Assembly (NCBI GenBank): GCA_047967505.1
Contig: CM106538.1
Direction: 5' to 3' (one strand)
Source of the DNA: Dipteris shenzhenensis
Lineage: Eukaryota
Length of the DNA: 64,000 bases
Part shown: positions 1 to 47,355 of the stretch, piece by piece
Layout: each line of letters opens with the position of its first letter
Numbering within the stretch: the stretch's first letter is position 1
Position numbers and translations under genes: made by a program
The notes under the pieces: generated by a model
The model's input: only the letters and a program-made list of their open reading frames with translations
Database searches by the model: none
Told to the model about the DNA's origin: nothing

Positions 1-2137
1 CACGCTAACACTTTATTTTGTTTAGATACTCCATCTTTTATCGTTTACCATATTGGTCCCACCTCAAGATCAATCACCTACTTGATCCCATGCATATCTT
101 CAAGAATATGGCATCTACCATTTGGGAGCATTTGAATGGGACATGAGATTTGGTAGGCATAAGGGAGGATCTATGTACCACAGGGAGGATGCGTGAAGCT
201 TGGCCTCAAGAGAGACCAAATGGGCGTGTTTTTTTACCTCGTGCACCGTGAATGTTATCAAAGCTAGAGATGGCAACGGTGGAGTGCGCTATTACTACAA
301 TTCGTACTCCCACTGGATGCATGAGGTGTTTGAAGGGAGCCTTTACAAAGAGCAAGAAAAGAGGTGTAGAGCAATTATATGGCTTGAAATCTCATGATTG
401 GCACAAGATGCTCCAAGTAAGTATTTTATATGCATAATATCTTTTTCCTTTCAAATTTGTGAGTGAATAGCTATAAGCAACTAATCAACCACCTCCTCGC
501 GGGTTCAGTTCATACTACCTACTAGCATTTCACGTAGTGCATCAAAGGACGTGAAAGATTGTATTTACAAGATGGGCGAGCTTGTGAGGTATGTGAGCTC
601 AAAGAAAATAGATCCCACCACTCTTGAGAATACTCGAGTTATGTCAGTGGAGGTGGTTTGGTTAGTGGAGGAGACATTTCCACGTTCTATTCTCACAAGC
701 CAACTACATCTCATAGTACATTTGGTGGATGAGATTGCTATATGCAGTACTATACATGCACGATGGTTGTTTTTCCTTGAGCACTTCATGAAGACATTGA
801 AGGGCTTCGTGAGACAAAATGCAAGACCCGAAGGTAGCATGGCCGAGGGTTGGTTGGTACAAGAGTCACTTGTATATATTTCTGAGTTTCTTGTTGATGT
901 GGATAGCTCTCTCCCATGACTATGGAGAGATGATGAAGACCTAAGGATGACCTCTATTGTGCCTCAAGGAAAAGGACGCAACAAAGTAATAGACACGGAG
1001 TTACATAATAGTATCAACCTCTTTTGCGTGCTTAATAGTGATGTGATGAAAAGATGGGTGACAAGATACGAGGATGCAAAGGCAAGAAGACAAGAAGAAA
1101 GGGCCCTCTTTCGTACACACCACGGATCTCATGTGCCATACCCTCAGCATCTAAGAGCACTTCCAAAGGATATTCATGTGGATTGGCTACTTGATGAAAT
1201 GGAGAAAGCAGAGAAAGACGAGGGGATGCATATCACAATGGAAGAATGGGAGTATGCTAGGGGATGCATGAGCAAGGTCGGTATATAGAATGTTATGCAT
1301 AAGTTAGGAGCTTTTTATAATTTAGATTGCTTATTTAATTGATTTTTTCTTGGTGTAGTGCACTATGTTCAATGCTATATGGTGTGACGGCAAGCATTTT
1401 CGAACACAACAGATTGATGATAAGAGAAACACACAAGATTGCGGCGTCATTGCTAGCTTTGAGGGAGCCAATGGAGCCATGGATGATTATTGTGGCATAA
1501 TCCAAGATATCATTATGCTTGACTTTCGACGCTTCTTTGTGTATGTTTTGGATGTAAAGTGGTTTAAGGACGTGGTGGAAAGAGGCCCTAATGCAACAAT
1601 CAAATGCCATGCAAGTGGCTTTGTAACTATTGACTCCATAAATTTTTGGCAAAGTAGGAAGGACACACTAGTACTACTGCAACAATGTGAACAGGTACTG
1701 TGCACACACATAAAAATACTCGCTTTTAAATATTTGATGCAAGAAAAGTAACACGATTGTATTTGTGTTTGAATTAGGTTGTCTATCAACCAATGGTGGA
1801 TAATAATAGATGGTGGCATGTCATACCTATTATGCCACGTTCCAAAGTGATGTATAGTACATTTACTAATATGGAGCGTATGGAGGATGATCATGGCCAT
1901 GGACGTGATGATGACCATGATACAAGAGAGGAGGATGATCATGAGATAGGAGATATAGATATTGAGGCCATTACCCGTGAGGACGAGCCTATCATTGGAG
2001 ATGCTGATTTCGATGAGCACATGAGTGGCACAAGTAGTAGTGGGTTGAATGTATTTGTAGATCTAAACACTTGTTTGGATTTTGAAGTAGATAGTTTGGC
2101 AAGGGTTGATCTCATTGAGGATGAGATTGAACCATAG
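1..2137 (+). pseudogene. CACTA TnpD transposase C-terminal part (DUF4218/DUF4216-like), disrupted
   Basis: Motifs GLKSHDWHKMLQ, HLIVHLVDE, RWLFFLEHFMKTLKGFVRQNARPEGSMAEG, DYCGIIQDI and WWHV. GT-AG introns near 418-508, 1279-1358 and 1694-1778. In-frame stop at 917. Confidence 0.85.
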
Positions 2138-2592
2138 CCCCACAATTGATATTGGCAAAACTATTTTACATATTGTCTCATTCTCCTCATCTCACTTAAT
2201 TCTTGTATATGTGGGCTTGCAAAAAATTATGTGCTTTGGTAATCATGGGCAATGTTTGGAAAGCAATGATGTACACCAAAATCTCACTTTCTGTATTCTC
2301 TGGAGCGCGTCTATTTATGCGTCTAAATGCGCGTCTAATTCTCAGTGTAAACGCGCAAATAAATGCGCAAATACACACGCAAATAGACGCGCTAATAAAC
2401 GGGATGTTAGACAGGCCCGTATTTTCTCAGGTCAAACGTGCAAATAGACACGGTTATTTACGCGTAAATAGACGAGCGTTTAGTCGCAAATTTAGACGCG
2501 CCCGTAATTTCTCTACTAAAGCAACGCCTATAGACACGCCCACTATTTTGTGCATCTACCAAGCACGTTTATAGTTGCTTCGTGTTGTTGTG
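1..2592 (+). mobile_element. CACTA/EnSpm DNA transposon, 3' part (element 1), inserted into Copia A
   Basis: TnpD-like coding fragments are followed by subterminal repeats of the (A)CGCGxAAAT(A)GACG type at 2300-2540. A degenerate right end ...TTGTTGTG (canonical TTGTAGTG) at 2592 abuts Copia sequence. Confidence 0.8.
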
Positions 2593-3075
2593 TAGCTTCT
2601 TTCGAAGCTCTTTTGGCACATGTGCATATGCCTCACACCCAAATATATGCAAATGAGAGTTAGAGGGCTTCTTGCCACTCCATGCCTCTTCAGGAATACC
2701 ACCATCCAAACTCTTACTAGGTGATCTATTGATCACATGCACTGCAGTCTTCATTGCCTCAGCCCAAAAACCACCAGAAAGACTTGCATTGGAAAGCATG
2801 CATTGCAACCTTTCTTGAATGGTACGGTTCATCTATTCTGCAATTGGATTTTACTCTGGAGTACGAGGGGATGTGATCTCCCTCTTAATCCCACGTGTAT
2901 CACAGAAATGCTGAAAGTCATGAGAGAGATACTCTCCACCATTGTTAGTCTGTAGGCATTTAAGCGTTCTACCTGACTGATTCTCAACCAAGGCCAGCCA
3001 TTTCTGAAATACCTGGAACACATCACTCTTCCGAGCTATAGCATAAGCGCACACTTTCCTAGTTGCATCATCAAT
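2593..3075 (-). pseudogene. Copia A integrase core, distal fragment
   Basis: IDDATRK...NGGEY...NRTIQERLQCML...FWAEA...FGCEAYAHVPKELRKKL. It continues exactly from the YYVTFI broken at 16550. Confidence 0.9.
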
Positions 3076-3399
3076 AACACACTATTCAAAATTTTTGGAC
3101 TTTCTCTCTTGGTTTGGACTTTTTTTTGGAGCATATCCTCTCCACTCAACTTCACTTAGTGAGCTAAAAAATTGGGTTTTTTTGAGCACTAAATGGGTCA
3201 CTTATATACAAATATGGCCTTATTAAGCTAGTAAAAAGTCAAGTGGTAACCTCTAATTTAAAAAAAAAAGGCTCAGTGAAGCTATAATTCCCAAACTCAT
3301 GCATGGTGCCCCCATCCAATAACTATAATAATAATAATAGTAGTCTCCTAACTCAAGTTCAATTTTAACACTATGAAGTGAAAATATGACACCATATGA

Positions 3400-3562
3400 A
3401 AAGAGTTTGTTGAATTCAACATATAAGTGGTGTATAGATACACCATTTTTTTGAAAAAAAGAGTTTGTTGAATTCAATATATAAGTGGTGTATAGATACA
3501 CCCTTTTTTTAAAAACAAACCATACAATAAATTATCTTATTGGTGGTGTATAGATACACCAT
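3400..3562. repeat. Left subterminal repeats (GTGGTGTATAGATACACC palindrome x3)
   Basis: Copies near 3426, 3485 and 3543. Related motifs occur at 15966-16325. Confidence 0.75.
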
Positions 3563-3794
3563 TTGTATGGAAAAAAGCATACAAAACATTATCTTATGCA
3601 TCTGAATCTCGTTCAGAGTCATCAGATTCATGTAATGTATTTGAGCTTGATGGGTCAAGTCTTGCCAAATGATGTTTAATATGGACACGACTTGGATCAG
3701 GGATTGTGATACATTTTTCAACATTGTATCCATGCTTCTTTTTAAAACTTCGTGTCCTTGATTTCCAGCAATGAATAATGCTACTGACTTCCAC

Positions 3795-6700
3795 CTATGT
3801 TAATCCCTCATTATTTGGAACCCATTCACGTTTCTTTTGCAAGCATCCCTCATAGAGTTGTTTTATTGTATATCTTCTTGGGAGATTTTTCAATGGCTTT
3901 GGTTCATACCATAAAGCTATAAATGTTATAGGAGTTCCCTTGTCATCCCTTTCTATCTTAGCAACCTTTGCAACCCAAATTGGGCCACCTTGGTCATCCA
4001 ACTCTGAACCCGGATCAGATGCCCAAACTGCGACAAATAGACCCTCTTCAATCTCATTAGATGGTATAAACTCTGGTAAGGGTTTGTCTCCCTTCCTGCC
4101 ACAATATTTTCGAGGTAAAAGGCATTCCTCTGCTTCCTCCATATCTACTAACATATTTATATCCAAAAGAAAACTTGGTGACCTAGCTTGTTTCGGCCAA
4201 AAGGATTCAGAGTATTCAATGCTCATTAAGTTTTCTTGTCTTTCTAAAGATTGGATAAGTGCTTTAGTTGATTTAATTGTCTCCAAATTCTTAGTTGATT
4301 GCTTAGGATATTTCTGCATCATACTTTGAAGATGTTTAATGAAGGCTTTCAAGCCTTTCATTTCATCTATGTCAAGTGATTTGTTTTTTGCAAGAACAAA
4401 TCTAGTTTCCTCCAATGGAATTATTCGTTGTAATAAAGCATATGACTCACTCCATAAATGATCTCCATCTACTGAGTAGTGCTTCCATTGCATCACTGGA
4501 ATATTATTATGCATGTGTAACCGAAAGTAGTGTGGATTTGTGTGTCCTATTAGGGCATCATCTTCTGTTTGTAAATGTGGCTCTATGAATGCTCTCCAAT
4601 CTACCATCCTCTCTAAGATAGCCACTTCTGATTCTTCCTTGCGAGAACCTCCAATTTTTTTCCCAATTCGAAATAGCATATCCTCCATTGTCAAAACATC
4701 CATTGCCTTCAACTCACCAGAGATAACACTGAAGATTTGATCTATGTCTTCATGTGTATGGCCGACAAGAAGAAAGCCAACTTCCACTTCTTCAAATATT
4801 TTCAAACCAACCAGCATAGAGCATAAAGCAAATATATATTTATTCTTGTTCTCTCTCCAACAATTATCAGCTTGTATTCGCAATGTGTTAGGCAAACATC
4901 CGCGAGCATCTCTGACCTTTCTTATTGCTTTCATGATTGATGTAACAACCTGGTTACTATCATGGTCATGCAAATATCAATCCATACATCACAAAAGATT
5001 CAGTATCCATGTACTAATACTCCACACAAGTGTGTTTTTAGTCCACGTTTGCCCTCCAATGCCAGTGGGATACATCTATATCGTGGCAAAGTGGTTGTAT
5101 TCTGGTCCATGCCATCAATGGTGATGCACATGGACTTATCGACATGTGAAATAGCTTCCTCTCTCCAAGAAGCATACAACTTTCGAGCATTCTGCACATG
5201 ACGTAAATGGATTGATCGCCATTTAATATATTTTCCTCGCTGCTGCTCACATTTACTATGTTCAATGGCATTTTTTAATTCATCACATGTGTTACATTTT
5301 GACATCCTTTGCTTTGATGGTGTCTTGACATGGCAAAAATCTCTACGCCAAATTTTGTACAAGGTTGATCGTGAAATCATGCTCTCATCTCTGTCTTGTA
5401 AGTTTTATTGATAGTTTCTAGGATGACCTTCTTTGTCATTCCCAAAGGAAGATGTTGTTGGCATTTGACACGTCCATCTAGCATTGTTTGTTGAAGATGA
5501 GGCTGCCGTAATGCATGGTCTTCGAGAACTTGCTTTAATGTTGCGGTTGCATTTATAGTGCTTCCATGGCATTTAAGCTTGTAGGTATTTCCATGAATTG
5601 TATGAATAACTTTTTCTTTCACCTCTGCCCAGATGGTCCAGTATGTGCCATGTGATAGTCCAGTTAACCATTGATATCCTCGATTGCAAATGGGTCTCCC
5701 ATTAACCATGGGTTTCAATCTAGGTTTACAGTGTCCTGTGCTCAAATCTTGATTAGAGCCTTGATGAAGAAAGCATGAAAACTCTTGAAGAAGATAGTTA
5801 TGTCTATTAGGCACTGTCTTACTCCAAATACCAAGGCGTATGGCTGCACAATCATCTTTCCCAACTTTTCTAATGCAAAGTCTCTTGCAACAAACTCGCA
5901 TAAGCATCCTTTCCATATTCTCCTCGAATAGCATCACATGTATGATTCTTCGCCTCTTCACACTCACATACTTTCTTTTTGTAAATAGTGTCTTGCGTTT
6001 TCTAGTTGTAAGACCATCAAACCTCGAATCCATTTCCCTTGAATCTTCATCTTTATAATCAAATGCTGTGTAGGCTTGAGAATTATTTGATACCTTATAA
6101 TATCTTGGAAATGGCAATCTGGTTGACATGTTCATTGATGTCAATTTGTTGCCAATGCCTCTTGAATTTTGTGGTTGAACTATTTCTCCTTCGTAACTCA
6201 AGATTCTCCCATCTATATTCTCTGGCATGCTAGCAACAATATTACGAACAACATGACAAGTCTCAGATTCTCTGCCCCTTTTGCCTTGTATTCGAGTGGT
6301 AACATCATGATCATTGTCACTAATATCATCAATTCCTGTTATTGCATCACTTATCCCATCGATCTTTGCGTGTATTTTTCTTTGTGGTCCCATCTTATTA
6401 TTCTCAACACATCTTCTGTCTTTTATATCAATAAGCATGTTTGAGTCACTTGCAGCACAAGATACCAGTGAGCCTGTTCGAGTCACTTGCAACACAGGAT
6501 AAATCTTCTATACCAGTGAGCCTGTTTGAGTCACTTGCAACACATGACAAGTCTTATATACTAGTAAGCCTATTCGAGTCACTTGCAACACAAGACAAGT
6601 CTTCTATACCAGTGAGTATATTTGAGTCACTTGCAACACAAGAAACCTTTTCTACATCAACATCTGTTACTATAATGTCCTCGATACCTGTGAGCATGCC

Positions 6701-7220
6701 ACTATGATACTCTTGATTACTACTATAGCTTCTTATCAATTTGGATCCCATTTGTGTTATAGTCTTTTTCTTCTGATAATATTCTGTTGTGTCTTCCATG
6801 ACATTGAAGGAAACTGTCTTGGGCAAACTTGATTTCAAGAAAGCTAACCCCCATTTACAAGTACTATGAACTTGTAGTTGAGACGTAGTATTATGATGTC
6901 TAATTGTGAAGTACTATCCATTGAATGACACCTGCACTAGTCAACTTAATTATCTCCACTATACAGAGAAAACTCTGAGCATAGCCCTTAAAGTTGCCAA
7001 TTGCTAAAACTTCTCCGGAGCAAGATAACATCTGTACTTTTTCCCCCTGCATATAAGTTTTCTTGATATCTTGAAAGTATGTCTTTGGAACAATTTCATC
7101 TTGGTCCCAGAGTGTTCTTTGTGCTTGCATATCAAATATGTCACATTGTAAGATATCTCCCAATGTTTCAAAGTCTCCATGTGGATATTTTAAATATAGG
7201 GTATATCTAACATGTTGCAC
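3795..7220 (-). pseudogene. Sola-type DDD transposase (DUF7869-like) with stops and frameshifts
   Basis: SKCNTC, ITIDGMDQ, LRIQADNCWRENKN and FLLVGHTHEDIDQIFS motifs, plus an upstream CCKRLC. Split across ORFs 6900-7220, 6554-6838, 5377-6495, 5000-5380 and 3795-4973. Confidence 0.8.
6430..6650 (-). repeat. ~48-bp coding tandem repeat (SCVASDSN) in the transposase N-terminus
   Basis: GAGTCACTTGCA(A/G)CACA occurs five times. Confidence 0.85.
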
Positions 7221-7253
7221 AAATCGAGAAAAATCATAAAATTTTGATTGTAT

Positions 7254-7650
7254 TTTAGGGTTAGGGTTTAGGGTTTAGTATTTAGGGTTAAGGATTTAGG
7301 GCTTAGGATTTAAGATTTAGTGTTTAGGGTTTAGTGTTTATGATTATATTTTTAGGGTTTAGGGTTTAGGATTTAGGGTTAAAAATATAAGGTTTAGGGT
7401 TTAGCTTTTAGGGTTTATGATTATTGTTTTAGGGTTTAGGATTTAGGTTTTAAGGTTTAGTATATAAGATCATGAGCTTAGAGTGTAGAATCTAGGGTTT
7501 AGAATTGAAAATCAGGTTTTAGAATTTAAGTTATAGGGATTAGGGTTTAAGGTTTAGGGATTATAACTATTATATAAGTTTAAGAGCTTAGATTATATAA
7601 CCTAAGATTTAGGGAACTTTAGGATTTAAGATTTAGGGTGTAAGATTTAA
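7254..7650 (+). repeat. Degenerate telomere-like (TTTAGGG)n tract
   Basis: Many perfect and degenerate TTTAGGG/TTAGGG units. Confidence 0.85.
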
Positions 7651-7756
7651 GATATATAGACTATATAAAATATGCATTGTAAAGTATTTAGTTTAGATAT
7701 ATATAGACTATATGTTATATGCTTTCCAAAGTGTTTTGTTTATAAGTACGATACAT

Positions 7757-8495
7757 TGCAAAGGCTTTACTTTAAGTAAGTATAAGTCTACCTAGTCAAA
7801 GTATCCTACTGATTAGGGACAAGCACATAGGCTAAAAGCACACCGATTCATATTTTTTTACATTCATGCTGCATGGTGTATCAGAAGGTACAATCCTTTG
7901 TAAAGGCTTTACTTTAAGTAGTTACAAGCCTACCTAGTCAAAGTATCCTACTGATTAGGAACAAGTACATAGGCTAAAAGCACACCGATTCATATTTTCT
8001 TACATTCATATTTTCTTATTGATTAGGAACAAGTACATAGGCTAAAAGCACACCGATTCATATTTTCTTACATTCATGCTGCATGGTGTATGAGAAGAAA
8101 TGAAAAAGTATGTGATAAGAAATATTCGAAGAAATATGTATTCCATATCATGGACATTCTAAGAAATATGTATTCCATATCATGGATACCATGGATATCT
8201 GGTGGTTGCTAAAGTAAAAAAATGATATGGATGCAATGATATTGTAGTCTTCTAGATTCTATGGTTTTAAATACCTACCTTACAAATACATTATCTAATT
8301 TTGCATTCTTCGACTAACTAACAAGTATTATACACATGGAATCATGGATATCTGATGGTTACTAAAGTAAAAAAATGATATGGATGCAATGATACTATAG
8401 TCTTCTAGATTCTATGGTTTTAAATACCTACCTTACAAATACATTATCTAATTTTTCATTCTTCGACTAACTAACAAGTATTATACACATGGAAT
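7757..8495. repeat. Local tandem duplications (~140-bp and ~160-bp units)
   Basis: AAAGGCTTTACTTTAAGTA...CACACCGATTCATATTTT occurs 2-3 times. CATGGATATCTG...TATACACATGGAAT occurs twice. Confidence 0.85.
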
Positions 8496-8974
8496 AAAAG
8501 CATACATGCTAAAAGTAAGTGTGTAAATTTTAATATTTTCTTATTTTTAAAATTAATTTAATTCTTTTATTGACTACTTTTTAAAATTGAAAGATTATTA
8601 GTATATAACCTACATAATTTTAAATGTTATTAATGTATAATATTAATTATTTATATATTTATTTAAATTTATATAATAATTAATTTATATTTATATTAGT
8701 TTTTAAGTTAATAATGTATAGAAGAGCAATATATTCACTAATTCTTCATTGTTTTAAGAGTAAGTATTATATAAAGCACATATGCTAGAAGACCTCCCTT
8801 TCAACTTTTTTTTAAATTAATGTATTTATATAATAATTATATAATATTTATATTAATTTATAGATTAATAATATATATTTTTAGCAAAATTATATTTTAA
8901 CATTAGTTAATAATAATTTATTATATTATGGAGTAAAAATATTATAAATGGATTTCTTATATTAATAAAGTGTA

Positions 8975-9810
8975 GTGAGAAGAGTTTTTTGAAAAGACTT
9001 ATGATTAAATTTTGTTTTGAAGTTGTTGCGTATGCAATAGGTAGGGACATTTGAGTGGTTTTGAGGTTGATAGAGATATTTGTAATAAAATGTCATGAGA
9101 AGAGTTTTTTGGAGGATTTGTGATAAAATTTTGTTTTGAAGTTGTTGCGTACGCAATAGGTAGGGAGGTTTGAGTGGTTTTGAGGTTGAGAGAGAAATGT
9201 GTAATAGATTGTTTTTTTTTTAAAGGAGTTTTTTGGAGAGATTTATGATAAAATTTTGTTTTGAAGTTGTTGCGTACACAATAGGTAGGGAGGTTTGAGT
9301 GGTTTTGAGGTTGAGAGAGAAATGTATAATAGATTATTTTTTTTTTTAAAGGAGTTTTTTGGAGAGATTTATGATTAAATTTTGTTTTGAAGTTGTTGCG
9401 TACGCAATAGGTAGGGAGGTTTGAGTGGCTTCGAGGTTGAGAGAGAAATTTGTAATAGATTGTTTTTTTTGGTTGATGAGTTTTTTTGAGAGATTTATGA
9501 TTAAATTTTGTTTTGAAGTTGTTGCGTACGCAATAGGTAGGGAAGGGTTATGAGAGTTTGAGTTAAAGAGGAAAATTTGAGGAAAAAAAGATTTAATGCT
9601 AAAATGGTTTTTAAAGTTGTTGCGTACACACAAGTTTTTGAGAAAAAGATCGGATTTGAAAAAAAATTCAAATTTATAAAAGATTTAATGCTAAAATGGT
9701 TTTTAAAGTTGTTGCGTACACACAAGTTTTTGAGAAAAAGATCGGATTTGAAAAAAAATTCAAATTTATAAAAACTTGATTCTTAGAAGTTCTTGCGTAC
9801 GCAATAGGTT
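8975..9810. repeat. Tandem array of ~120-bp and ~90-bp units, each with a TTGCGTACGCAA palindrome
   Basis: About 8 copies of AAGTTGTTGCGTAC(G/A)CA... Confidence 0.9.
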
Positions 9811-9938
9811 AGAAATGAACTCACCTCTTGCAACATTTTGAAAATTTTTGAGAATCTTGCAACAGGTTGATGAGAGGAGAGAAGCGTGGAGTGTAAACGA
9901 ATGATCTTTGAATGAAAGAGAGAATGAAGAATGTTCTA

Positions 9939-10023
9939 CTTATAGTGAACCTAAAAGAACTAAAAAAACCTTAAAAACTAAAAAAAGCTGACTTGACCTA
10001 AAAGCTATTTATTTCCTATAAAA
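9939..10023. promoter_or_regulatory. Putative bidirectional promoter (back-to-back TATA boxes)
   Basis: TATAAG on minus at 9939-9944 and TATAAAA on plus at 10017-10023. Each is followed by a pyrimidine-rich leader and a splice donor (AG|GTGAGT at 9824, minus; CAG|GTA at 10102, plus). Confidence 0.5.
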
Positions 10024-10104
10024 CTCTACTCCTCATTCTGTCTCACAACTCTCTTATTCTCTCTCACAACTTTCCTGGAGCTCCACCACCTCTCCACTCA
10101 GGTA

Positions 10105-12132
10105 CTCCCTCCCTCCCTCTTCTCCAACTTCCTCTCTCCCCTCCCCTCCCCCTCCCTTCCCCTCTCCTCCCGCTTCTCCCCTCCCTTCCCTTCCCTTCCC
10201 CCTTCCCCTCTCCTCCCTCCCCAAGGGCCCTTCCCCTCCTCTCCTTTCCCTCCCCGTCCCGCTGCCTTCCCCTCCCCCTTGCCCCGCTCCTTTCCCTCTG
10301 CTCGTCCCGCCCCGTTCCCCTTCCCCTCCCCTTGTCCTGTGCCCCGCGCTGCCTTCCCCTCCCCCTTGCCCCCGCCCTCGCCCCGTTCCCTCCTCCCGCC
10401 CCCTTCCCTTCCCCCTTGCCCCCCGTGCCTGCCCCCTGCCGCTGCCCCTTCCCCTTCCCCCCTCCCTATCGTCGCTCCCCCTTCCCTCCGCCCCCCCCTT
10501 CCCTTCCCCCTTGCCCCCCCCCTTGCTCGCCCCCTGCCCCTGCGCCCGCCCCCTACCCCTTCCATCGATCGACGGAAGGGGTAGGGGGCGGGCGCCGGGG
10601 GGGGCAAGGGGGAAGGGAAGGGGGGGGCGTGGGGAGGGCAAGGGGGCGGGCGGAGGGAAGGGGGGGGGCATGGGGAGGGCAAGGGGGGCAAGGGGGTGGG
10701 CGAGGGGAGGGCAAGGGGGGCGGGGAGGGCAAGGGGGCAGGCGAGGGGCGGGGAGGGGGGCATCACCCCCCTCACCAGTTGCGTGCGCAACAGGGGGCAA
10801 GGGGAGGGGCAAGGGGGAAGGGAAGGGGGGGCGTGGGGAGGGCAAGGGGGCAGGCGGAGGGAAGGGGGGGCGTGGGGAGGGCAAGGGGGCGAGCGAGGGG
10901 CAAGGAGGGCAAGGGGGCGAGCGAGGGGCGGGGAGGGGGGCATCGCCCCCCTCACCTCTTGTGCACACAACAGGGGGCAAGGGGAGGGGCAAGGGGAAGG
11001 GAAGGGGGGGCGTGGGGAGAGCAAGGGGGGCGGGCGGAGGGAAGGGGGGGGTCTGGGGAGGGTGAGGGGCGGGGAGGGCAAGGGGGCGGGCGAGGGGCGG
11101 GGAGGGGGGCATCGCCCCCCTCACCTGTTGCGCACGCAACAGGTGCGAGGTGAGGGCAAGGGGAGGGGCAAGGGGGAAGGGAAGGGGGGGCGTGGGGAGG
11201 GCAAGGGGGCAGGCGGAGGGAAGGGGGGGGCGTGGGGAGGGCAAGGGGCGGGGAGGGGGGCATCGCCCCCCTCACCTGTTGCATGCGCAACAGGTGGGGG
11301 GATCCCGCACCTGTTGCGCACGCAACAAGTACGGGGCGGGGGCAAGGGGAGGGGCAAGGGGAAGGGAAGGGGGGGGCATGGGGAGGGTAAGGGGGCAGGC
11401 GGAGGGAAGGGAGGGGGGCGTGGGGAGGGCAAGGGGGCGGGCGTGGGGTGGGGAGGGCAAGGGGGCGGGCGAGGGGCGAGAAAGGGGGCATGGGGAGGGC
11501 AAGGGGGTGGGCGAGGGGCGGGGAGGGGGGCATCGGCCCCCGCACCTGTTGCGTGCACAACAGGTGGGGAGATCTTGCGTGCGCAACAGGAGGTGGGGAT
11601 CCCCCCACCTATTGCGCACGCAACAGGTGCGGGGCGAGGGCAAGGGGAGGGGTGCGGGCAAGGGGAGGGGCGGGCAAGGGGGAGGGGCGCGGGCGGGGAG
11701 GGGGGCATCGCCCCCCAGGGCAAAGGGAGAGGTGGGGCGGTGTGGTGCGAGCAAGGGGAGGGGCGGGGTGGGGCGGGCGCGGGGGGCAAGGGGGAAGGGA
11801 AGAGGGCGGGTACGGGGAGGGCAAGGGGGAGGGGGCGTGGGGAGGGCAAGGGGGCGGGCAAGGGGAGGGGGCGGGCACGGGGAGGGCAAGGAGGAGGGGG
11901 CGTGGTGCGTGGGGCAAGGGGGAGGGGGCACGGGTGGGGAGGGGGAGGGGCTCACCTGTTGCGCGGGCGACGATGCCCCTCCGCCTCCCCCTCCCTGCCC
12001 GCGCCCCCTCCGCCTCCCCCTTGCCCCATGCCCCCTTTCCCCTTCCCATCCCCACCCGTGCCCCCTCCCCGCCCCTTCCCGTCCCATCCCCTCCCGCTCC
12101 CCCTTCCCCGCGCCTTCCCTGCACCCTGTCCC
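10105..12132. repeat. Extremely GC-rich, G-quadruplex-prone repeat region with a central palindrome
   Basis: C-rich to ~10560, then a hairpin centred on TCGATCGA (10565-10572), G-rich to ~11970, then C-rich again. Confidence 0.9.
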
Positions 12133-12377
12133 GTTAAAATTAAAAAAGTTAAAATAAATAAAACTTAAAAAAAATCAAAAAATTAAAATAAATTTTAAAT
12201 ATAAAAATAAACTAATTAATTAAAATAAAATAATTAAAAAGGAAAAAAATATTTTATTTTAAAAATTAAAAATCAATAAAACTTAAAAGAATATTTAATT
12301 AAAAATTTATTTAATATTTTGAGTTTGAAAATCATTGTATTTCTCATTTTTTATTTTTGATTGCTTTTCAGAAAACT

Positions 12378-15300
12378 ATGGCTTCCATGGCTTCCAGTTT
12401 TGGTTCCAAGGTGTCTTTCAAATACCTTGAACATGCTTGGTATTTTATGGAGCACAAATCAAAGTATTTTTTGGTGATCACTTCAGAGAACATATGAAGC
12501 CCGAAATATTCTGCAGAGGCAGTAAGAAATGGTGGCATGGTATCAAACATCAATATTAAAGAAAACAATTTGATAGAAATTGTGTGCCAAGGAAAGAATG
12601 ACGAGGTGGTTTACAAGTTACGAGTTACTCCGAAGCACCTCTTGAAGCCGTTACCAGATTCAATTGAGGGATCCCAAGAATTACTTAATGCCTTAGAAGC
12701 ATTGAAGAAAATGTGGGATGCATTTCCAAGTGGTGGTGTTGAACCTTCAGCACCACTAAGTATGCCATCTATAACATATAACCCTCAAGTACCATCAATA
12801 TCTATGGCGGTAACTCCGGTAACTCCAGCAAGTGTAACTACAGTATCTCCAACTGTACCTACACCATCGACTGCTACAACTACAGGAACAAGAAGGAGTG
12901 ATCGTGGAGCAGACTCAAGTGCTATAGCTAATCCCAGAAAGAGAGCAAAAATAACTCCTACTCCATGTGCAGATCGCTCGAGTGCAGGCTATTTAAAACC
13001 AGGCGAAAAATTGGATAGCGATGAAGAGGAAGATCAACAAGAAGAAGATACAAGTCTCGAAGACTTTTCTATAAGTGTGGCAGACTTACATACTCCAGAG
13101 GATGAGGGATACATTTGGGGATTTTCACAATTCAGCGTGGCCACAATGCTTATTGATCGAGCTTCATTGTTCACAAATCAAAGAAAGCTCGATAAGATAT
13201 TTGCATGCAAATTGTATGAAGATACAAGGAAAACAAGAACTCCAGTTGCCACTAATATCACTCTTCGTCCTATGGCGTTTAAGAGACTTCAAGAAGATGA
13301 TCCTACATTGCCTGATGTCACATTTCAAAAGCGTGTGGACTTTCTTGATGCTTTTGAGAACTTTAGAAGGAGTGACTTTGTTCGTGGAGAGGCTTTGTAC
13401 CAAAGCCGATATGGGAGTGACATCGAGAAGAAATACATGCTGGCAAAGAATAGATTCTTGAAAAGATGCAGGTTTGAGCCCATTGATGGGCAACACTTTT
13501 GTGAAGCTTGCAGGATCGCCCTTGATGAGGGAAGAAAAGGAAACTTGCCATAGATTGAGTGGATGGAAACGTTTCAACGGGTCATTTGTCATATATGCAT
13601 ATTTAATGATGACTCAAAGTACATTCTAGAATCAGAGAGGCTGAATTCTGCTCCATTTAGGTTGAAAAAATGCTCTTCTTTTTTTGAGATCTTGATAAAG
13701 GCAAGGGAGTTATGGATGGGCTGTGGAAAGCCACAAATAGTGAAGGGCAAGAGACCTACATCGGAGTACATGGCAAAGAGGACTCGGTTCTATAGATGCT
13801 TGAAAGGTGTTGTAAGCAATACGCAAGGCATACCAGGTAATAAGGTTGAGGCAAAGGATTTGAACACCACCGTTGCAAGATACAGGGATGTTACCTGCAT
13901 TGTCTTCCGCGAGGACTCAGTGTTTCAGAGCATTGTGGATGTTTGCCAAGCATATGAAACAGGAAAGATATCCTTTGAGGCACCAGAGCACATTGCAACT
14001 CAGAGGAAAGAAATAAAGAAACCGATGTCTATTGTTTGGTGGAGAGCTTTAAGGTTTGTTCCAGATGCAATAACAGAAGAAGTATGCAAGAAGATCCTAA
14101 GTGGTGACTGCTTCTTTGGAAAGAAGAGCAAGCATAGCAACTTAGATGAAGTGGTCACCTGAATGATTCAAAGTGAGGCTACTCTCTCGGCACTATTATT
14201 TTTATTGAAATCTGATGATGAGTTAGCTAGCAAGTCAATTGATGTGGATAAGAAGAAAGCACTTAGCCTAGGTCAACTCCTTGATAAGACATGGGCTAGA
14301 AAGTGGTTGGCTTCAATGGATGCAGATGCCACACCAACAAAGGATCTAAGAGCTAAAATGCCAAAGGTTGTTGAGACAGAATATATGGACATCAAGAAAA
14401 AGGCCTTGCAGTCCAGTACCCAAGGTAGAGCAATTGGTGGTTTAGATGATGGTTCTCCATTCAGCTTCTCTTATGATATCCTGCTATCAGAGAATGATAC
14501 AAAATTTGCACACATCAATGGCACTGATACAGAGCATTTCATAACAATGAGTGGTCATGCTTGGGAGAAGCCGTGCGTATTTTTCATAGATGAATTGCAA
14601 GACCTTGCAGTGTCACGGATAGTTAAACTTGTGCGGTTTATCATAGAAGGTCCTATGGCAGATAAGAAAAGATCAACGTTGGTCCTGTTCATGACAGAAT
14701 CACAAAGGGATGCCCTATATGTGAGTTTGACATCTTCATTTGGATGATTTACTTTCAAAAGTATACCATGGTATAGTCCTACATAATCATATGACTGTCT
14801 TGGAAGGCACCGCCATTCAAGTCCTGCAGCCTTTCTTGATGTGCTTCTTATCGAGGGGTGGTGGTAATCTAATCCAAACTCCTTTAAGGACTCTCGAGCT
14901 TCATTACTTTGAGGACAATAAGGTTAAGCTTGATGCAGCAATGGTGGATTACAAAAAGCCGATGGATCCTGATGTGATACTAGAGATGACAAAGAATTTA
15001 TTGAATGATGGGTGCGAAGTAGCATTGTATCGAATGGGTTTTGCTGCTGAGAAATTGCTACACCAAGGTAGAAATGTAAATGTCATTGATACCCCCCATC
15101 AAATTGAGTTCTTTGACACATATTACAGTTGCACTCTTTCTTTGAGGAGGAAAATGTCAAAGAAGAGGGTAGTGAGTCTGAGGGTGATGATTCTAGCTCA
15201 GGTGATGATGAGGATGAAAGCTCTGCATCCGATGACTTATGGCAAGAAGAAATCCGCACAAAGAATAAGAGTGATCAATTGTCAACTAGAGTCAAGGAAG

Positions 15301-15803
15301 TTCCACTCATCATATGGGAAGGTTCGCGGCAGCAAGAAGTTACAGTAGTACAGCACGTCACAGGTAAAGGTAAGGCTAAAGAGGTGGAAGCACTTCCCTT
15401 AAAATTAAAAGTGAGGAAGGCACCCTTGATCTTGGATGAAGGACAGGCAAGTGGATCGATCTTGGGTGAAGGACAGGCAAGTGGATCAAGCAAGGAAGCC
15501 TTACTCAAAGAAGGTATGGACGAGGCAAAGCATGATTAGGAGGAGTTACCAGGAGGCATAGATGGTTCTTCAACCATGACCTTACAGACTCCAGAGCAGC
15601 CTACTAGTTAGGAACCTAGTAGCCAGGTCCCTACTTACCAAGAACTTGGTCATGAGACTCTAGAGCAACCTACTAGTTAGGTGCTTGGAACTGAAGAGCA
15701 AACTACTAAGGACCTTGCTACTGAGACTCCAGTCTTAGAGCAGCCTATTAGTCAGGACCCTGGTAGTCAAGGGCCTAGCATTGAGGACATTGGTACTGAG
15801 TAA
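12378..15803 (+). pseudogene. Second gene of the Sola-like element: putative ParB/DGQH-like domain, degenerate amino-methyltransferase-like domain and acidic tail
   Basis: ATG at 12378 after the acceptor TTTTCAG. One frame continues through single stops (~12495, 13551, 14160), with frameshifts near 14750 and 15130. FEPIDGQH is at 13473-13496. Domain calls are by eye only. Confidence 0.6.
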
Positions 15804-15965
15804 CATGATGGCTAACAGCTTTGTAATCACAAGTTTTGAACTTCTATGCAAAGCTAATATCTAATAAAAAGTTTACTACTTTTTTGATTTCTTTGCTCTC
15901 ATTATTGTGTATAAAGATTGTTTATGAGGGCCATTTTATTCTTAACGGTGTTTTTTAATACCAAG

Positions 15966-16450
15966 TGTGGTGTATATGTACACTACTTACACATAAAAGG
16001 ATTTACCTACACTACCTTTCTAAGGGCTTTATGTACACCACCTTTCTAAAAGAAATGGTCATAAAGGTGTGTGCACACCACTTATACATAAAGGTGTTTA
16101 TTTACACCACCTTTCTAAGAGTATTGGTCATCTATTATTGGTCATCTATTGATGTTCTTAGGTGATTATGAAGATGTTTATGTAGACCACTTTGTAAGAG
16201 AATTGGTCATCTATTGATGTTCTTAGGTGATAGTTGCTCAATTCACAAGAAGTTATGAAGATGTTTATGTAGACCACTTTGTAAGAGATTTTTGTGAAGT
16301 TATGAAGATGTTTATGTAGACCACCTTTGTAAGAGATTGGGTTATGCATTGATGTTCTTAGTACTTAATCATTAAATCTTTTGTTTTGAGTTGGCAAATC
16401 TAGTTCAAAATCATTAAATCTTTTGTTTTGAGTTGGCAAATCTAGTTCAA
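15966..16450. repeat. Right subterminal repeats
   Basis: GGTGT...ACACCAC palindromic variants; TTATGAAGATGTTTATGTAGACCAC x3; a 42-bp tandem duplication at 16368-16452. Confidence 0.75.
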
Positions 16451-16549
16451 AAAACAACATTACTAGTATATTCAAAATTTTTGGACTGTTTTTTAGTCCA
16501 TTTCTCAAATTGGACTTTACACAAGTCCAAAATTTTTGAATAGTGTGTT

Positions 16550-18400
16550 CAATGAATGTCACATAGTATTCAGCCCCGCTTAATGACCGTGTAGGCATGG
16601 GACCACATATGTCTGAATGCACCAAATGAAGCTTTTCAAACTCTTTCTTTCCCCTTCTTTTATGGGCTGATTTAGTCTGCTTCCCATAGAGACAGTGCTC
16701 ACAAAATTCAAAATCAGAGAAACTTAAATGTGGTACATAACCCAAATGGCATAAGAATTTCATTCCATTTTGGCTCATGTTCCCCAACCTGCAATGCCAA
16801 AAAGAAGTGCCTGGCTGCTCGGTTATTGCAACAACATGATCAAATACCCCTGATACATGTAAGGGATACAAAGTCCCACACTTGGCACCCCTGGCCAAAA
16901 GCATAGAGCCCTTTTGAATTTTCCAACTCTGAAAGCCAAAAGTGGTGTGAAAACCAGCATCATCTAGCTGGCCCACTGGAATAAGACTCTTGCTCAACTT
17001 AGGCACATGTCTCACATGTTTCAAAACAAATGCAGACCCATTTGCAAAAGAAAACTTTATGTCACCTGCTCCCACTATGTCACATGCATAGTCATTTCCA
17101 AGATGCACACAACCTATCTTTCGACTATCATAAGTGGAGAACCATTCCCTATGGGGAGTAACATGGAATGAAGCAACAGAATCCAAAATCCAATCCTTGG
17201 AATATGCATCATATAAAGTGCTAAGCAACTCTGCAGATAAACTAGACATGAAGAGAACGTCATTGTCACTATCATGTGTGACTGCATTGATCTCCTCGAT
17301 CTTAACTTTTCCTTTGTCCTCCCTTGGACTCTCTTCCTTCTGATTTGCACCCCAATTTGCATTCTTTTTCTTATCCTTTTGCTCTCTTTTCAGCTTGTAG
17401 CAATCCTTTTTCATATGGCCCTTCTTGCCACAATGGTAACACTCAATGTTTTGTGCCCTGGATTTGCTATGAGACTTCCCTCTTTCTTGGGACTTCCCCT
17501 TGAACTGTGATCTGCCCCTTTGCACATTTAAGGCTGCATCTTGCTTGTTGCTATCCATAGACTTCCGTCTAATCTCCTCGGCCAACAAGCTACCCACAAC
17601 ATCATCAAATTTCAGTACTCCACTAGGTGCAGAGTTACTAACAGTTGTACAGAAGGTATCCCATGAGGATGGCAATGAACATAAGAGAAATATTGCCTTA
17701 GTCTCCGCATCAAAATTAATCTTCTGAGCTTGAAATTGTTGGCTGAAAATAATATTGAATTCATTCAAGTGAGAAGCAATGGAGACCCCTTCCTTCATCT
17801 GCAGCTCAAACAACCTCTTCATGAGGTAAACTTTATTAGAGGTAGTTTCCTTTTCATAAGTGGCACCTCGGGGGGGTCACTATGTATAAACCCTCTATAC
17901 CACGTGCGTTCAAGGCCTATTTCTAAAATCCCTTATCTGTAAAATTTTCATTAATAAAATGTACCCCTTTTCTATACAAATCTGTAAATTTTTTCCAAAA
18001 CTATTTTAAATAGTCCCTTATGTATATTTATTTCTGTAAATTTTAGAAATAAAAAATATCCTTCTGTTGAACTCATGTGATAGGGTTACATATGATGAGT
18101 GACCCCCCTGAGAGTGGCACACAATTTCTTCTACAAATCTTTCGTAGTTTGCTCATTTACTACTATGAAATAAATTGACTCTGTAATATGAATTCTAATA
18201 GTAGATTTTGCTAATGCATCCAACTCATTCCAATCATCCTCAGACATATTTGCAGGATTAGCTTCAATCCTTGCCAAGGGTTTAATCTGCTTCTTTTGAA
18301 TAAGCACATCCCTTATTTGTTCTTTCCGCAAAGAAAAGTTTGTCCCATCAAACTTTTTAATGCTTAAAAACTTCTTTTCAGACATGGAAGAGGATGCCAT
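16550..18400 (-). pseudogene. Copia A gag-protease-integrase (5' part), interrupted by a MITE
   Basis: IKKFDGTNF, LLCSLPSSW, zinc knuckle CYHCGKKGHMKKDC, WILDS, GAG-pre-integrase WHCRLG...CEHC, and LVHSDICGP. Confidence 0.92.
17867..18112. mobile_element. MITE, copy 1 (8-bp TSD)
   Basis: TIR CTC(G/A)GGGGGGTCAC and TSD AGTGGCAC (17859-17866 / 18113-18120). Excision restores gag KKLCATYEK. Confidence 0.92.
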
Positions 18401-19948: not shown

Positions 19949-22900
19949 TCCCCCTCAGCAAAATGTCTTTCCCATCCCTTGCAAATCTTAGCATCCAAAC
20001 GGGCCTTTTGTCGATTCTTTTGGATCTCTGTTTGATGTAGGGCAAGGCGTTGGGCTTCATCTAGCTTCTCAAGTTGCACCAATCGGGCCTCTACATGTTC
20101 ATCTTCTATCATCCTCTGTTCTTGTGCCAATATCAAAGCTAGAATCTCTATCTCTAGTGGTAAAATAGCCTTAGTACCATATACCAACTCAAAAGAAGTG
20201 TGACCTGTAGATGTTTTATGAGTGATGTTGTAAGCCCATACAGCTTCTGTGACCTTATGATCCCACTGGCTCCTATTTCCTGTGGCCATTTTTCCCATGG
20301 TTTTACAAAGGAGGCCATTGGTCTGCTTTGTTTGACCCATGGATGCTGGATAATAGATGCTAGAAGTGTGATGATCAATACCCATGTGATCCATGTTGGG
20401 ATATCTCAAGGTGTATGCCTCAGGCACACCTTGGTTTCTATGTGTGAGTGCTAGAGGCACAGTTAGGTGGTGGAAAGCCACATAGGATGATTGAGAGAAT
20501 CTAGGAGCAGATTGAGGAGATGATTGTGGAGCTCTGAAGTCATCAGTGATGTCAGTGAGCATGTATGAGGTGCCTACTTAAGGACCTCACTCTTCTTCAT
20601 TCTACAAGCAAGTAATGCAAGTATTCTGAGTTTGTGTCCACTCTTTGCTTTCCTTTCAGTTTTCCAACATGGTATCAGAGCCCTTTGATCCCCCTTGAGC
20701 CCATTTCTGCCACATCATCATCTTCTTCTTCATCTTCTTCTTCCCCATCTTCCTCCTTCTTCCCAAAATATTTGAGAGCTTGGTTCTCCACCTACAAATG
20801 ACCATTGCCCAAACCCTCTGAGCTGGAAACTCCTCTAGTATGGATGAACTTCCACGTGCAAGCAATTGAAGAAAAAACGTCTGTGGTGGCTGCCATTCTC
20901 CAAATAGCGAATTTCTTCTATTGCTCAATACTCTCTGCCTGCTCCGCCATTGCCTGAGCCCTCTTAGGAGTAGATGGGCGACCTCAAGATGAAGATTTTG
21001 AGCCATTTTTTAGGTCATTTGGTTCAGTAACGAGGGAGAAGTCGTCAAAACTCAGGTTCAGTCTGTAGCAACTCTCCCGGGCAAAAGTGCACACCATTTC
21101 GTCCAACCTCTGTGCTGGACCCTCTCTGGTATATGAGCTTTCTTTTGCTTCAGAAAGCCCTCTTTTTCTTGCTTTGAAGAGTGAACTACAAGCCCTCCAA
21201 GTTCAGCCTGTTGGTTTTGAAAGTTTTGACAAGTTTTTGAAGAAGATGCTACATAAGATGCTATTCTAGCATTTCTGGTTTTTTGAAACTTTTAATAACT
21301 TCAAAACAAGTGTGGCTTCAGTTTTGTTTTGAATTACTAGACCTTGTTTTGATTGGAAAATATTCATTTTAGCCACTTCTATGAAGGATGTAAGAAGAAG
21401 CATCATTGTTTGAAATTTGGTCACAAGACTTTGCTACATTAAATGCTTATATTTTGAAGCATTTCAGTTGTTATTCTAAGCCCTGTAAGAGAGAAGACAC
21501 TGCCCAATACTTGGGTTAGACCCTCTCATGGCTTGCTTATGCAAAATGTGTGAAAAGCCAAAACATAAAGCAATGTCTTGTTATGCTACAAAGGATGAAA
21601 ATGTCAACCTGACTTCCTTGTTGAAGATTGCCAAAACAATGGTTGCCAAAAAGGAAGCAACTACAAAGCCAGAGATCTACCCTCTCATGGCACTTTTATT
21701 TGACTCCAAGTACAAGAAAAAGATGAAGGTCAGATACCTAAGATATGCTTCTCTACACAACTATGGAGATGACAACATAATTGTTCTCTTGAAGGATATG
21801 ATTTTTAGATCCACTTGTTCTATCATAGTACCATCTTATAAGGCACTAGACACTGCCCATGTGGTAAGACCTTGCCTTAACATGGATATTTTGCCTCCAC
21901 AAGATGAGCATCCCATGAAGATTATGCATTTTAAAACATCTCTATGTATGCTCCAGATCTCTCTTTTTATGTCGAGGTACTCAGCCTGGATAGTCCTCCA
22001 AAATGAATGAAATAAACTATTGTGTTTTGTAAACACCTCTGGTCACCTTATGATGTAGGCCATGTGTATGTTTTGCTCCATGGTACCTCCTGCAGACATT
22101 GTGTGCATGTACATGTAGGGGAGATAACCATTGGAAGGTCTTTTGTTATCCCTTTTGTTTACCTTACACCCAAGGGAACCCTTGCTAGCATGAGAACCTA
22201 GCCATAGATTTATCCTTGACCACCATGAGATGGCATGAGAAACTATGAGACTAGATGTATCCTTGACATAGCCTGAGGCATTTCCTTGAGGGGGGGTTTG
22301 TTGGGATATCTCAAGGTGTATGCATCAGGCACACCTTGGTTTCTATGTGTGAGTGCTAGAGGCACAGTTAGGTGCCCACAAGCACAGTTAGGTGGTGGAA
22401 AGCCACATAGGATGATTGAGAGAATCTAGGAGCAGATTGAGGAGATGATTGTGGAGCTCTGAAGTCATCAGTGATGTCAGTGAGCATGTATGAGGTGCCT
22501 ACTTAAGGACCTCACTCTTGTTCATTCTACAAGCAAGTAATGCAAGTATTCTGAGTTTGTGTCCACTCTTTGCTTTCCTTTCAGTTTTCCAACAATCCAT
22601 GAGTAACTCCACTGCTTCATTTAAGAATGGACTCCCATGGTCAGAGACTATTTCCATGGGTGTCCCGAACCTTGTGCAGATACGTTCAAATATGAAATTT
22701 GAAACCGCCTTACCATTTGTAGCAGGGAGGGTGATAGCTTCAGCCCACTTAGTGACATATTGATTGGCTACCAAAAGATACTTCTTTTTGTGGGCAATCA
22801 TGGGCAAGGGCCCAACAAAATCTATTCCCCACTTCTGAAACGGATGGATGGACATCACTGGGTGATGTTGCCCAGGATGCAAATCCTTCCTACTAAAGAA

Positions 22901-26974: not shown

Positions 26975-28278
26975 GACATAAAGGCCCATCATCCACAAAG
27001 GTAATATGCATCAATAGTGTCGAGGGATTTCTGGCAGCTAGGCCCACAAAAATAGGATCCAAGTTATGAACATGGCCTTCGTCTTCAATGCATTGGAGTG
27101 CAGCTTATGCATCTCATGCTTGCTGAGAATACACAAAGAAAATGTTGCATTGCTCTTTGTAGGTATTTTTGAGGTCTTGCCTCTATCCGGTATATTGGAG
27201 CATTGCATTCAAGCGATTCACTTCAGACATTCAGAAATAGCATCATGCACTATGATTCTTGTAAATGTGAGATCTTCCTGCAATGCACTTTGCGGTGTAG
27301 GCTATGGACCCTCTACACCATCACCCCCTCTACACGTTCATCTCTCACGGCTTCACGCACGTTCATAAATAGTTCAGAGCTTGTTATAGAAACTACACAT
27401 ATACAAAATATGGCTAATGAGTACACTATGTATCATATAAAACCTATAAGCACAGATGGCACAAAATGGCATGTACTTCATGCACCTAAAGTCGGGCTTC
27501 CCACATTAGCAGGTGGTGTTGCACTGATGGGGATAGCAGTGGCACCAGCTGTCCTTGGTTGCAATCACTTTTTGCTGTGCTTTCTGGATTGGAAGGAGAA
27601 GTCTACAGGCACACAAAGCACGAACTTCCTTTTCCAATCAATGTGGACTCCTTCTCTCTCCTCCTCAATTGGATTTTGAACGACCTTCTATACTCCTCAT
27701 TGTCTGAGGCCTTTCAATCATAGATTCCTATGGATCCAAATTCAAACATTTGAATGACAAGACATTTGAATAATTGAACATATTAGAAATTCAGTAGAAG
27801 ATAAATATATACTTACCACCCATGCCTCTTTGTTGAGCCTGTCATCGCTCTCGAGGTGCGAAGGACCTATAGTCTTGAGGCATATCCTCGTTGGCCTCCA
27901 CTGAGGCTCAAACACTTCTGGATCCTCCTTGTAGTCCTTCGCTCTCTTCCAATCCTTTGGGTCCACCCACCCTAGCTTGGTTTTGCCCTCATTAACAGCA
28001 TCCCTTAATTCGTATCTACGAGACTTAAGGAGCTCCCCCATGCAAGTTAGCATGGCATTTCAATCAAACTCATACCCTTTAGGATTTGGAAATTGTCTTT
28101 ATGATGGCATCCTTGGCTTTATCGTCCTATTGGTTCCAAGGTTTGAATATATCTTTGAGGAAGTGGGTGCTCACCAACCTCCTCATGTATCTTGTGACTG
28201 CCTTCCTGTCATCATCCTATATAACATTCCCAACATATCCACTCCATAGGATAGGTCCTCTAGCAAAACAAAGTCCAA
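26975..28278 (-). repeat. Diverged, internally deleted copy of the 49640-58390 region (Cys-rich ORF relic plus CACTA TnpA-like relic)
   Basis: 26975-27625 matches 49640-50036 plus 55667-55965. 27630-28278 matches 57705-58390. Confidence 0.85.
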
Positions 28279-47113: not shown

Positions 47114-47118
47114 AGTTC

Positions 47119-47355
47119 CTAGGACAGCATAAAATTTCTGTGATTAGCCCAGGTTACAGTACGTTTTCTACGTAAAAAGTGTTATATAGAACACAAATCC
47201 AAAGACAACTGCACGAGCGATTGTTTGCAAACCTTGTACCTTCACTTGGTCAGTTATAGCTGGTGCAATATGATCTCTGCGCTTGGAAGAGTACTAAGGT
47301 CCAACTATCAAGCTCCAAAGATCTCGAAATTTTGAAAATCAAGCAAGGGACTCAC
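47119..47355 (-). other. Putative 5'-UTR intron of the SHC gene
   Basis: Donor G|GTGAGT at 47355, branch-like GCTAAT at ~47143-47148, and acceptor TAG 5 nt before the ATG. Confidence 0.55.

Follow-up and report, generated by a model that had tools for sequence, protein, structure and literature searches.

The Sola superfamily is, to our knowledge, among the least studied of the DNA transposon superfamilies, and we know of no member that has been characterised biochemically. As described in PMC10741241, Sola elements encode a transposase with an aspartate-only (DDD) triad, generate 4-bp target site duplications (TSDs), carry terminal inverted repeats (TIRs) of 11-1124 bp, measure 2-9 kb with some exceeding 15 kb, and occur in moss. 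Excerpts of further accounts give a target preference of AWWT for Sola1 (PMC3845634) and a TSD of 3 bp for Academ (PMC5199201), and place annotated Sola elements in the ferns Ceratopteris and Azolla; for seed-free plants, Sola appears in these excerpts only as rows of RepeatMasker tables. The present analysis concerns a transposon in a 64,000-nt stretch of DNA from Dipteris shenzhenensis (assembly GCA_047967505.1, contig CM106538.1). This whole stretch is referred to as the window, and all positions follow its numbering. The transposon carries two genes, a transposase that matches the Pfam family DUF7869 and a second gene in open reading frame 2 (ORF2), and is quite probably a single old insertion of a large class II cut-and-paste element with TIRs, of the Sola type, whose genes decayed later.

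TIR transposons with two genes are well known in plants, in the form of CACTA elements (En/Spm, with TnpA and TnpD) and PIF/Harbinger elements (a transposase and a Myb-like ORF1). In both, the second protein binds repeated subterminal or internal motifs, and the TSDs are 3 bp long. A second gene has also been described within Sola itself, in the excerpted account of the Sola2-Fanzor1 chimeras of Dictyostelium fasciculatum and Polysphondylium pallidum (PMC3627910). The initial annotation of this stretch had taken Sola to make 4-bp TSDs and usually to carry only a transposase; the first of these statements agrees with the description in PMC10741241, whereas the second has to make room for the two-gene Sola2-Fanzor1 elements that are already in print (PMC3627910).

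Limits of the element and its insertion site

The transposon is a single insertion of 13,474 bp (3076-16549). Its ends are formed by 27-bp TIRs that are identical at 26 of 27 bases, and the tetranucleotide CAAT is present immediately outside both of them (Table 1). When the TIR was used as a search pattern over the entire 64 kb with up to 3 mismatches, only two sites were recovered, both of them the ends of the element, against 0 expected from 100 shuffles; no further copies of the termini were found elsewhere in the window. Once the insert and one CAAT are taken out, a minus-strand reading frame runs continuously over the junction, reading VTFI before it and DDATRK after it. The right flank encodes the Copia domains Retrotran_gag_2, zf-CCHC, Pol_BBD and gag_pre-integrs, and in the left flank the match to the rve integrase-core profile, which has 102 positions, sets in at position 30. 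Together with the joined frame, these flanking domains show that the insertion interrupted a Copia element within its integrase core. Since the frame is restored at the empty site, all of the sequence between the TIRs came as one unit; both genes and the repeat-rich centre arrived together as one mobile unit with exact boundaries. The 27-bp TIRs, the CAAT duplication, the rejoining of the flanks into a Copia integrase and the movement of the interior as one unit had all been put forward in the initial annotation, and are borne out here.

The unit thus landed at a CAAT in the Copia integrase core and duplicated those 4 bases, after which both genes decayed. The transposase has accumulated two frameshifts and two premature stops, and ORF2 four in-frame stops and two frameshifts, so that this copy can no longer move autonomously. 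The element copy is dead, and both of its genes are pseudogenes.

The DUF7869 transposase and its probable placement in Sola

The core of the transposase matches Pfam PF25273 (DUF7869) with an E-value of 6.9e-48 and 163.2 bits, against a gathering cutoff of 26. The gene is collinear with the relatives P0001, P0006, P0008 and P0017 across residues ~220-1040, and its lesions consist of a frameshift at ~5390, a stop at 5000-5002 followed by a frameshift at ~4975, and a further stop at 3795-3797. Introns were considered as the cause of these lesions and rejected, the homologues being collinear across the sites without room for introns; the frameshift sites of the element's genes do not lie in long homopolymers. 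The full-length relatives P0001, P0005 and P0006 (~1055 aa) are 33-36% identical over 99% of the 393-residue C-terminal ORF, and the best match overall is a 425-residue fragment with 62% identity. Named relatives are “uncharacterized” proteins, found in sea urchins, amphioxus, hemichordates, bivalves and corals, with one from Chara braunii.

Invariant residues in an alignment of 12 sequences include D511, D514, D593, D633 and D635, and the transposase of the window retains the corresponding type of motif in IDGMDQ, IQADNC and GHTHEDIDQ. The residue preceding D633 is variable (E, T or S in the search pattern), which argues for a DDD rather than a DDE triad. The alignment therefore points to a DDD triad that is predicted to be catalytic. 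No match to piggyBac, rve or other transposase families of Pfam was found in this protein, PF13843 (DDE_Tnp_1_7) being absent at E<=0.1. The earlier designation of the gene as a DDD transposase thus agrees with the DUF7869 match and the retained aspartate motifs, but it had missed the two frameshifts and two stops by which the gene is broken.

The transposase and its ~1055-aa relatives also have in common a C-terminal extension of ~150 residues (with a pattern of the kind FVA...W..KV...WYWP), located at ~3660-4060 on the minus strand. This extension has no Pfam match and lies outside the part represented in the named animal DUF7869 proteins; a role as a module for binding chromatin or DNA is possible.

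The TIRs, the 4-bp TSD, the aspartate-only triad and the lack of a piggyBac, rve or other transposase domain together make the element fit Sola. A TIR length of 27 bp falls within the 11-1124 bp described, CAAT has the expected length of 4 bp, and the invariant aspartate motifs are those predicted for a DDD transposase. piggyBac elements insert at TTAA, whereas the target here is CAAT and no match to PF13843 is present; the 4-bp TSD likewise differs from the 3 bp of Academ. Additional information comes from the metagenomic locus L006, where a distantly related DUF7869 element of 3.7 kb (437-4139) has 26-bp TIRs starting with AGGACT, a 4-bp AAAA duplication and a transposase of ~960 codons with one in-frame stop. 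Next to the insertion in the window, L006 provides further, though weaker, evidence that 4-bp TSDs go with the DUF7869 family. Boundary mapping in related metagenomic families (L003, L014, L019 and others) gave no crisp ends.

Instead of belonging to Sola, DUF7869 could define a separate, unnamed DDD superfamily that also makes 4-bp duplications, an option that we consider rather unlikely. The tie between DUF7869 and Sola rests on described features, as no tool applied connects DUF7869 with Sola1-3, and the name DUF7869 was not found in a search of the full-text literature. Yet among the superfamilies in the accounts at hand, only Sola combines a DDD triad and a 4-bp TSD without a piggyBac-type domain, the TSDs of Academ being 3 bp (PMC5199201) and piggyBac being bound to its own target. 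The long C-terminal extension of the closest full-length relatives, which reaches beyond the part covered by the named animal proteins, would suit a separate superfamily, as would the CAAT target, which is unlike the AWWT and AT-rich targets described for Sola1 and Sola2 in these excerpts; the taxa in which DUF7869 is found (sea urchin, amphioxus, bivalves, corals, Chara), on the other hand, overlap with those reported for Sola. CAAT deviates from the AWWT preference of Sola1, although a single insertion is too little to define a preference. Membership in Sola, set by the described features (DDD, 4-bp TSD, TIRs) and not by sequence comparison with Sola1-3, is nevertheless held to be probable. 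The initial annotation had further suggested a large, possibly undescribed Sola lineage; the TSD, the DDD motifs and the size are those of the description, but Sola is already routinely annotated in ferns, as the excerpts of the fern literature indicate.

The second gene and the repeat-rich centre

ORF2 lies in divergent orientation to the transposase, with 5.9 kb of repeats between the two genes. A divergent second gene of ~1100 codons had been noted before; it is real and divergent and comprises ~1054 codons, but it is broken in this copy by in-frame stops at 12495, 13551, 14160 and 14745 and by frameshifts at ~14745 and ~15120. When 1.84 billion representatives were scanned in full with HMMER, 32 matches were obtained at E<=1e-3, of which 18 were at <=1e-10 and 3 at <=1e-30. 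Most of the matches are short fragments with 40-93% identity, as is expected of decayed copies of a repeated gene, and it is this multitude of fragmentary, diverged copies in which ORF2 resembles a transposon gene. One of them, P0130 (269 aa, 90% identical to ORF2), passes uninterrupted through both frameshifts of the window copy; intact or less decayed relatives of ORF2 therefore exist, and introns are rejected as the cause of the ORF2 frameshifts. Long but distant relatives (P0139, 1488 aa; P0155, 1199 aa; P0148, 1097 aa) have a common core of ~330 residues, which aligns between ORF2 and P0155 with an E-value of 6e-19 over 351 columns, and the N-terminus is conserved as well in P0139 and P0135. 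The core contains the motif WEPVDGQH..AC, in which Q, H, A and C are invariant in 9 sequences. Among the relatives, only a hypothetical protein from the lycophyte Diphasiastrum complanatum is named, and the nearest language-model clusters are those of Streptophyta (0.97 and 0.94). A profile search of a word-indexed protein database returned 1 fragment only, and no relatives turned up when metagenome contigs and viral contigs were scanned. On the strength of the 32 matches, the conserved core and N-terminus, P0130 and the lycophyte relative, ORF2 is not a chance frame; its sequence conservation marks it as a genuine gene, from a protein family that lacks annotation.

The likeliest reading, to which we give close to an even chance, is that this lineage of elements had ORF2 as a resident second gene, transcribed away from the transposase over the 5.9-kb intergenic region common to both; the initial annotation had proposed a dedicated accessory gene. 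ORF2 and the transposase have been disabled to a similar degree. Nothing points to nesting, since no pair of TIRs, long terminal repeats (LTRs) or TSDs was found that brackets ORF2 or the centre. Furthermore, copies of one 12-bp palindrome, TTGCGYRCGCAA, occur in the AT-rich as well as in the GC-rich repeats, so that the centre looks like one evolving unit. All 13 matches to this palindrome in the window fall within 9026-11623, where 0.11 would be expected, and none of 100 shuffles reached 13.

Several observations weigh against residency and against a role for ORF2 in the transposon. Movement of ORF2 together with the transposase is known from one insertion only. No relative of ORF2 was found in any of 80 distant metagenomic DUF7869 loci, most of which are too short for two genes (327 kb in all, 25-40% identical and mostly on contigs of 2-6 kb, which limits the two-gene test), and the element in L006 has a single gene. 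Neither ORF2 nor element termini accompany a second DUF7869 transposase fragment in the window (28264-29562, plus strand), which is 78% identical in nucleotides to 4360-5242 and heavily decayed, with several in-frame stops. The gene product itself matched no Pfam family at E<=0.01 (ORF2 and 8 relatives), which leaves its role to analogy, and ORF2 had no match in NCBIfam at E<=1, among PDB sequences at E<=10, or in phage genomes by tblastn.

It is quite possible, although we tend to doubt it, that an otherwise ordinary single-gene Sola-type element took up ORF2 and the repeat-rich centre as passenger DNA, by a one-off capture or as an old, eroded nested insertion, in which case ORF2 would stem from another element or family and have no part in the transposon. 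The 0 of 80 loci with an ORF2 relative, the single-gene L006 element and the lone transposase fragment at 28264-29562 are what a passenger would lead one to expect, but the 80 loci are distant and mostly too short for two genes. Large DNA transposons often capture foreign DNA, and for Sola2 itself the excerpted account documents elements whose 3' halves have been swapped and carry Fanzor1 (PMC3627910). An eroded nested insertion has to be reconciled with the missing TIR, LTR or TSD pair around ORF2 and the centre, with the parallel decay of the two genes, and with a palindrome that spans both kinds of repeats to within ~750 bp of the ORF2 start. A third possibility, a composite in which the ends of a small element mobilised ordinary host DNA and host genes (macro-transposition), appears very improbable to us: the telomere-like repeats, satellites and GC-rich block of the interior do resemble generic genomic repeats, but the transposase lies inside and adjoins the left end, the terminal hairpin and subterminal motifs belong to a single element, and the relatives of ORF2 are many fragmentary, diverged copies typical of transposon genes, with no named host gene family among the matches.

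If ORF2 is the resident second gene, CACTA and PIF/Harbinger elements suggest by analogy that it is a DNA-binding helper like their second proteins, and we infer as its candidate targets the 13-copy palindrome array or the subterminal motifs. The DGQH of the core is reminiscent of the DGQHR/ParB-type motif, for which profile searches gave no support: PF02195 (ParB_N) had no match in 23 members of the ORF2 family at E<=10, and no DGQHR domain was matched by ORF2 in NCBIfam at the threshold given above. Language-model features place ParB_N-containing clusters near P0148 (0.79) and near the isolated domain P0146 (0.91-0.93, with 108-142 of 256 features shared). Two AlphaFold models were considered, with a predicted local distance difference test (pLDDT) score of 86-97 for residues 50-150 of P0148 and a mean of 82.9 for the P0146 domain. 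Searches with the ORF2-family models in Foldseek gave nothing at E<=0.001, and in VIA-align, chains of the ParB/Srx fold (SerK 5x0b, PadC 6ryk, sulfiredoxin 6ky4, KorB 8qa8, SbnI 5ujd) reached Z 3.2-4.7, tied with B12-binding domains at Z 4.0-5.4 and below the level that the tool regards as meaningful. A ParB-like fold of ORF2 is thus a weak lead from these models. A degenerate N6/N4 methyltransferase-like Rossmann domain in the C-terminal part was dropped as a candidate; BLAST of P0130 against P0139 and P0148 gave no significant match (E-values of 4.7 and 0.43), and the C-terminal part of the ORF2-family model has a pLDDT of <50. The fullest version of these ideas seems to us distinctly unlikely. 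In it, the element would stand for a Sola lineage of streptophytes that has two components and is so far undescribed; a ParB/Srx-like ORF2 would load on the 13-copy TTGCGYRCGCAA array as ParB does on parS, and would help such a very large element to build or control its transposition complex.

Hairpin-forming sequences are found towards both ends of the element in different arrangements. At the right end, the last 88 nt form a hairpin (-17.9 kcal/mol, z -5.85; none of 200 shuffles equally stable), because an inverted copy of the TIR core sits 30 bp inside. The left terminal 88 nt show no significant hairpin (z -0.67), and hairpin-forming tandem units of 58 bp occur ~320 bp inside that end instead (z -5.2). 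Subterminal palindromes had been announced for both ends; at the left, it is these tandem units, and not the terminal 88 nt, that form hairpins. Two other predicted features, the telomere-like repeats and the GC strand-switch region, were recovered: the former as a degenerate array, the latter as a change from C-rich to G-rich at the centre of an inverted repeat (10568/10569) and back to C-rich at ~11970, in a context of ~38% GC.

Palindrome arrays were rejected as a general trait of the family, as repeated long palindromes are present in only 3 of the 80 DUF7869 loci (L046, L079 and L043). In L046 (6014 bp), 19 copies of the 17-nt palindrome CATCCCAGNCTGGGATG occur, some of them inside the transposase ORF; L079 and L043 contain 5 and 6 copies, respectively, of other long palindromes. 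The apparent TIR of L079 is an inverted 22-nt sequence (30-51 and 4675-4696) at both contig ends that we take to be a Nextera library adapter, so that this TIR is read as an assembly artefact.

Table 1. Features of the transposon and of the Copia element that it interrupts (window positions)
Feature	Position	Strand	Remarks
Host Copia, downstream integrase-core part (rve positions 30-102) and SH3-like domain	2476-3075	-	profile match
TSD, left copy (CAAT)	3072-3075		identical to 16550-16553
Left TIR, 27 bp	3076-3102	+	26/27 against right TIR; 2 matches in window, 0 expected
Two direct TTTGGACTT motifs, TIR core repeated subterminally	3094-3122	+	at 3094 and 3113, nowhere else in window
58-bp tandem repeat, hairpin-forming units	3399-3577		3.1 copies; z -5.2 for 3399-3520
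Transposase pseudogene, DUF7869 type, predicted DDD motifs	3594-6438	-	2 frameshifts, 2 premature stops; collinear with P0001 residues 252-1037
48-bp tandem repeat, at or upstream of transposase start	6462-6643		3.8 copies; tandem-repeat analysis
Degenerate plant-type telomere-like array (TTTAGGG)n	7254-7460	+	period 7, 29.7 copies, 70% matches
153-bp tandem duplication	8181-8495		2.1 copies, 95%
AT-rich tandems, 126-bp x5 then 92-bp x2	8980-9773		TTGCGTACGCAA palindrome in every unit
Array of 13 copies of the 12-bp palindrome TTGCGYRCGCAA (<=1 mismatch)	9026-11623		crosses AT-rich and GC-rich repeats
GC-rich low-complexity block, ~180-bp tandem units	10000-12130		63-78% GC; C-rich, G-rich, C-rich
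ORF2 pseudogene, ~1054 codons, unannotated protein family	12378-15539	+	4 in-frame stops, 2 frameshifts
Right subterminal direct repeats, 40-95-bp units	15970-16452		including 42-bp x2 at 16367-16452
Right terminal hairpin, inverted internal TIR-core copy pairs with TIR	16469-16549		-17.9 kcal/mol, z -5.85
Right TIR, 27 bp	16523-16549	-	pairs with left TIR, 26/27
TSD, right copy (CAAT)	16550-16553		identical to 3072-3075
Host Copia, gag / CCHC / Pol_BBD / pre-integrase up to split point	16554-17876	-	profile matches

The window consists largely of nested retrotransposons. A second Copia-type element is present at 50400-54793 on the minus strand, with gag, CCHC, Pol_BBD, rve and RVT_2 in separate frames, and a Gypsy-type integrase fragment (Integrase_H2C2 and rve) at 22502-23221 on the same strand. 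An uninterrupted ORF of 663 codons (45155-47143, minus strand) matches the N- and C-terminal domains of squalene-hopene cyclase (E 7e-114 and 1e-122) and is surrounded by retrotransposons in this plant-like window; bacterial-type, intron-poor squalene-hopene cyclases are known from ferns and other seed-free plants.

Proposed mechanism and comparison with known systems

In the mechanism that we propose for the active element, the DUF7869 transposase would bind the TIRs and the repeated GGACT-containing subterminal motifs, excise the element and integrate it via a 4-bp staggered cut. The insertion in Dipteris is a base-exact example of a Sola-type element with an empty-site proof, and it connects DUF7869, a Pfam family with no assigned function, with a TIR element that makes a 4-bp TSD. 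ORF2 in turn points to an unannotated family of proteins of 1000-1500 residues that is possibly a transposon helper. Should both genes travel together in other copies, they would constitute a new two-component transposon system with the palindrome array as a testable binding target; should they not, the locus would be an ordinary dead transposon with passenger DNA.

Of the systems compared, Pfam PF25273 (DUF7869) matches the transposase core well, but Pfam assigns the family no function. CACTA and PIF/Harbinger, the basis of the analogy for ORF2, use other transposase families and have TSDs of 3 bp as against 4 bp here, and the Pfam search showed no sequence relation of ORF2 to their second proteins. 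The Sola2-Fanzor1 elements are alike, in the excerpted account, in combining a Sola-type transposase and an unrelated large ORF within the same TIRs and in making 4-bp TSDs. They differ in the nature of that ORF, since ORF2 has no Pfam match of the OrfB_Zn_ribbon/TnpB type (E<=0.01) and belongs to another, unannotated family, and in their hosts, which are amoebae as opposed to the plant-like genome of this window. With Sola as it is described in these excerpts, the element has in common the TIR cut-and-paste type, the 4-bp TSD, three invariant aspartate motifs, a size within the reported range and the occurrence in seed-free plants, a resemblance judged from descriptions; it differs in its target, CAAT instead of AWWT or AT-only sites. 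Beyond the features described for Sola, the Dipteris element adds a second gene of ~1050 codons, a palindrome array of 13 copies and a GC-rich block of 2 kb.

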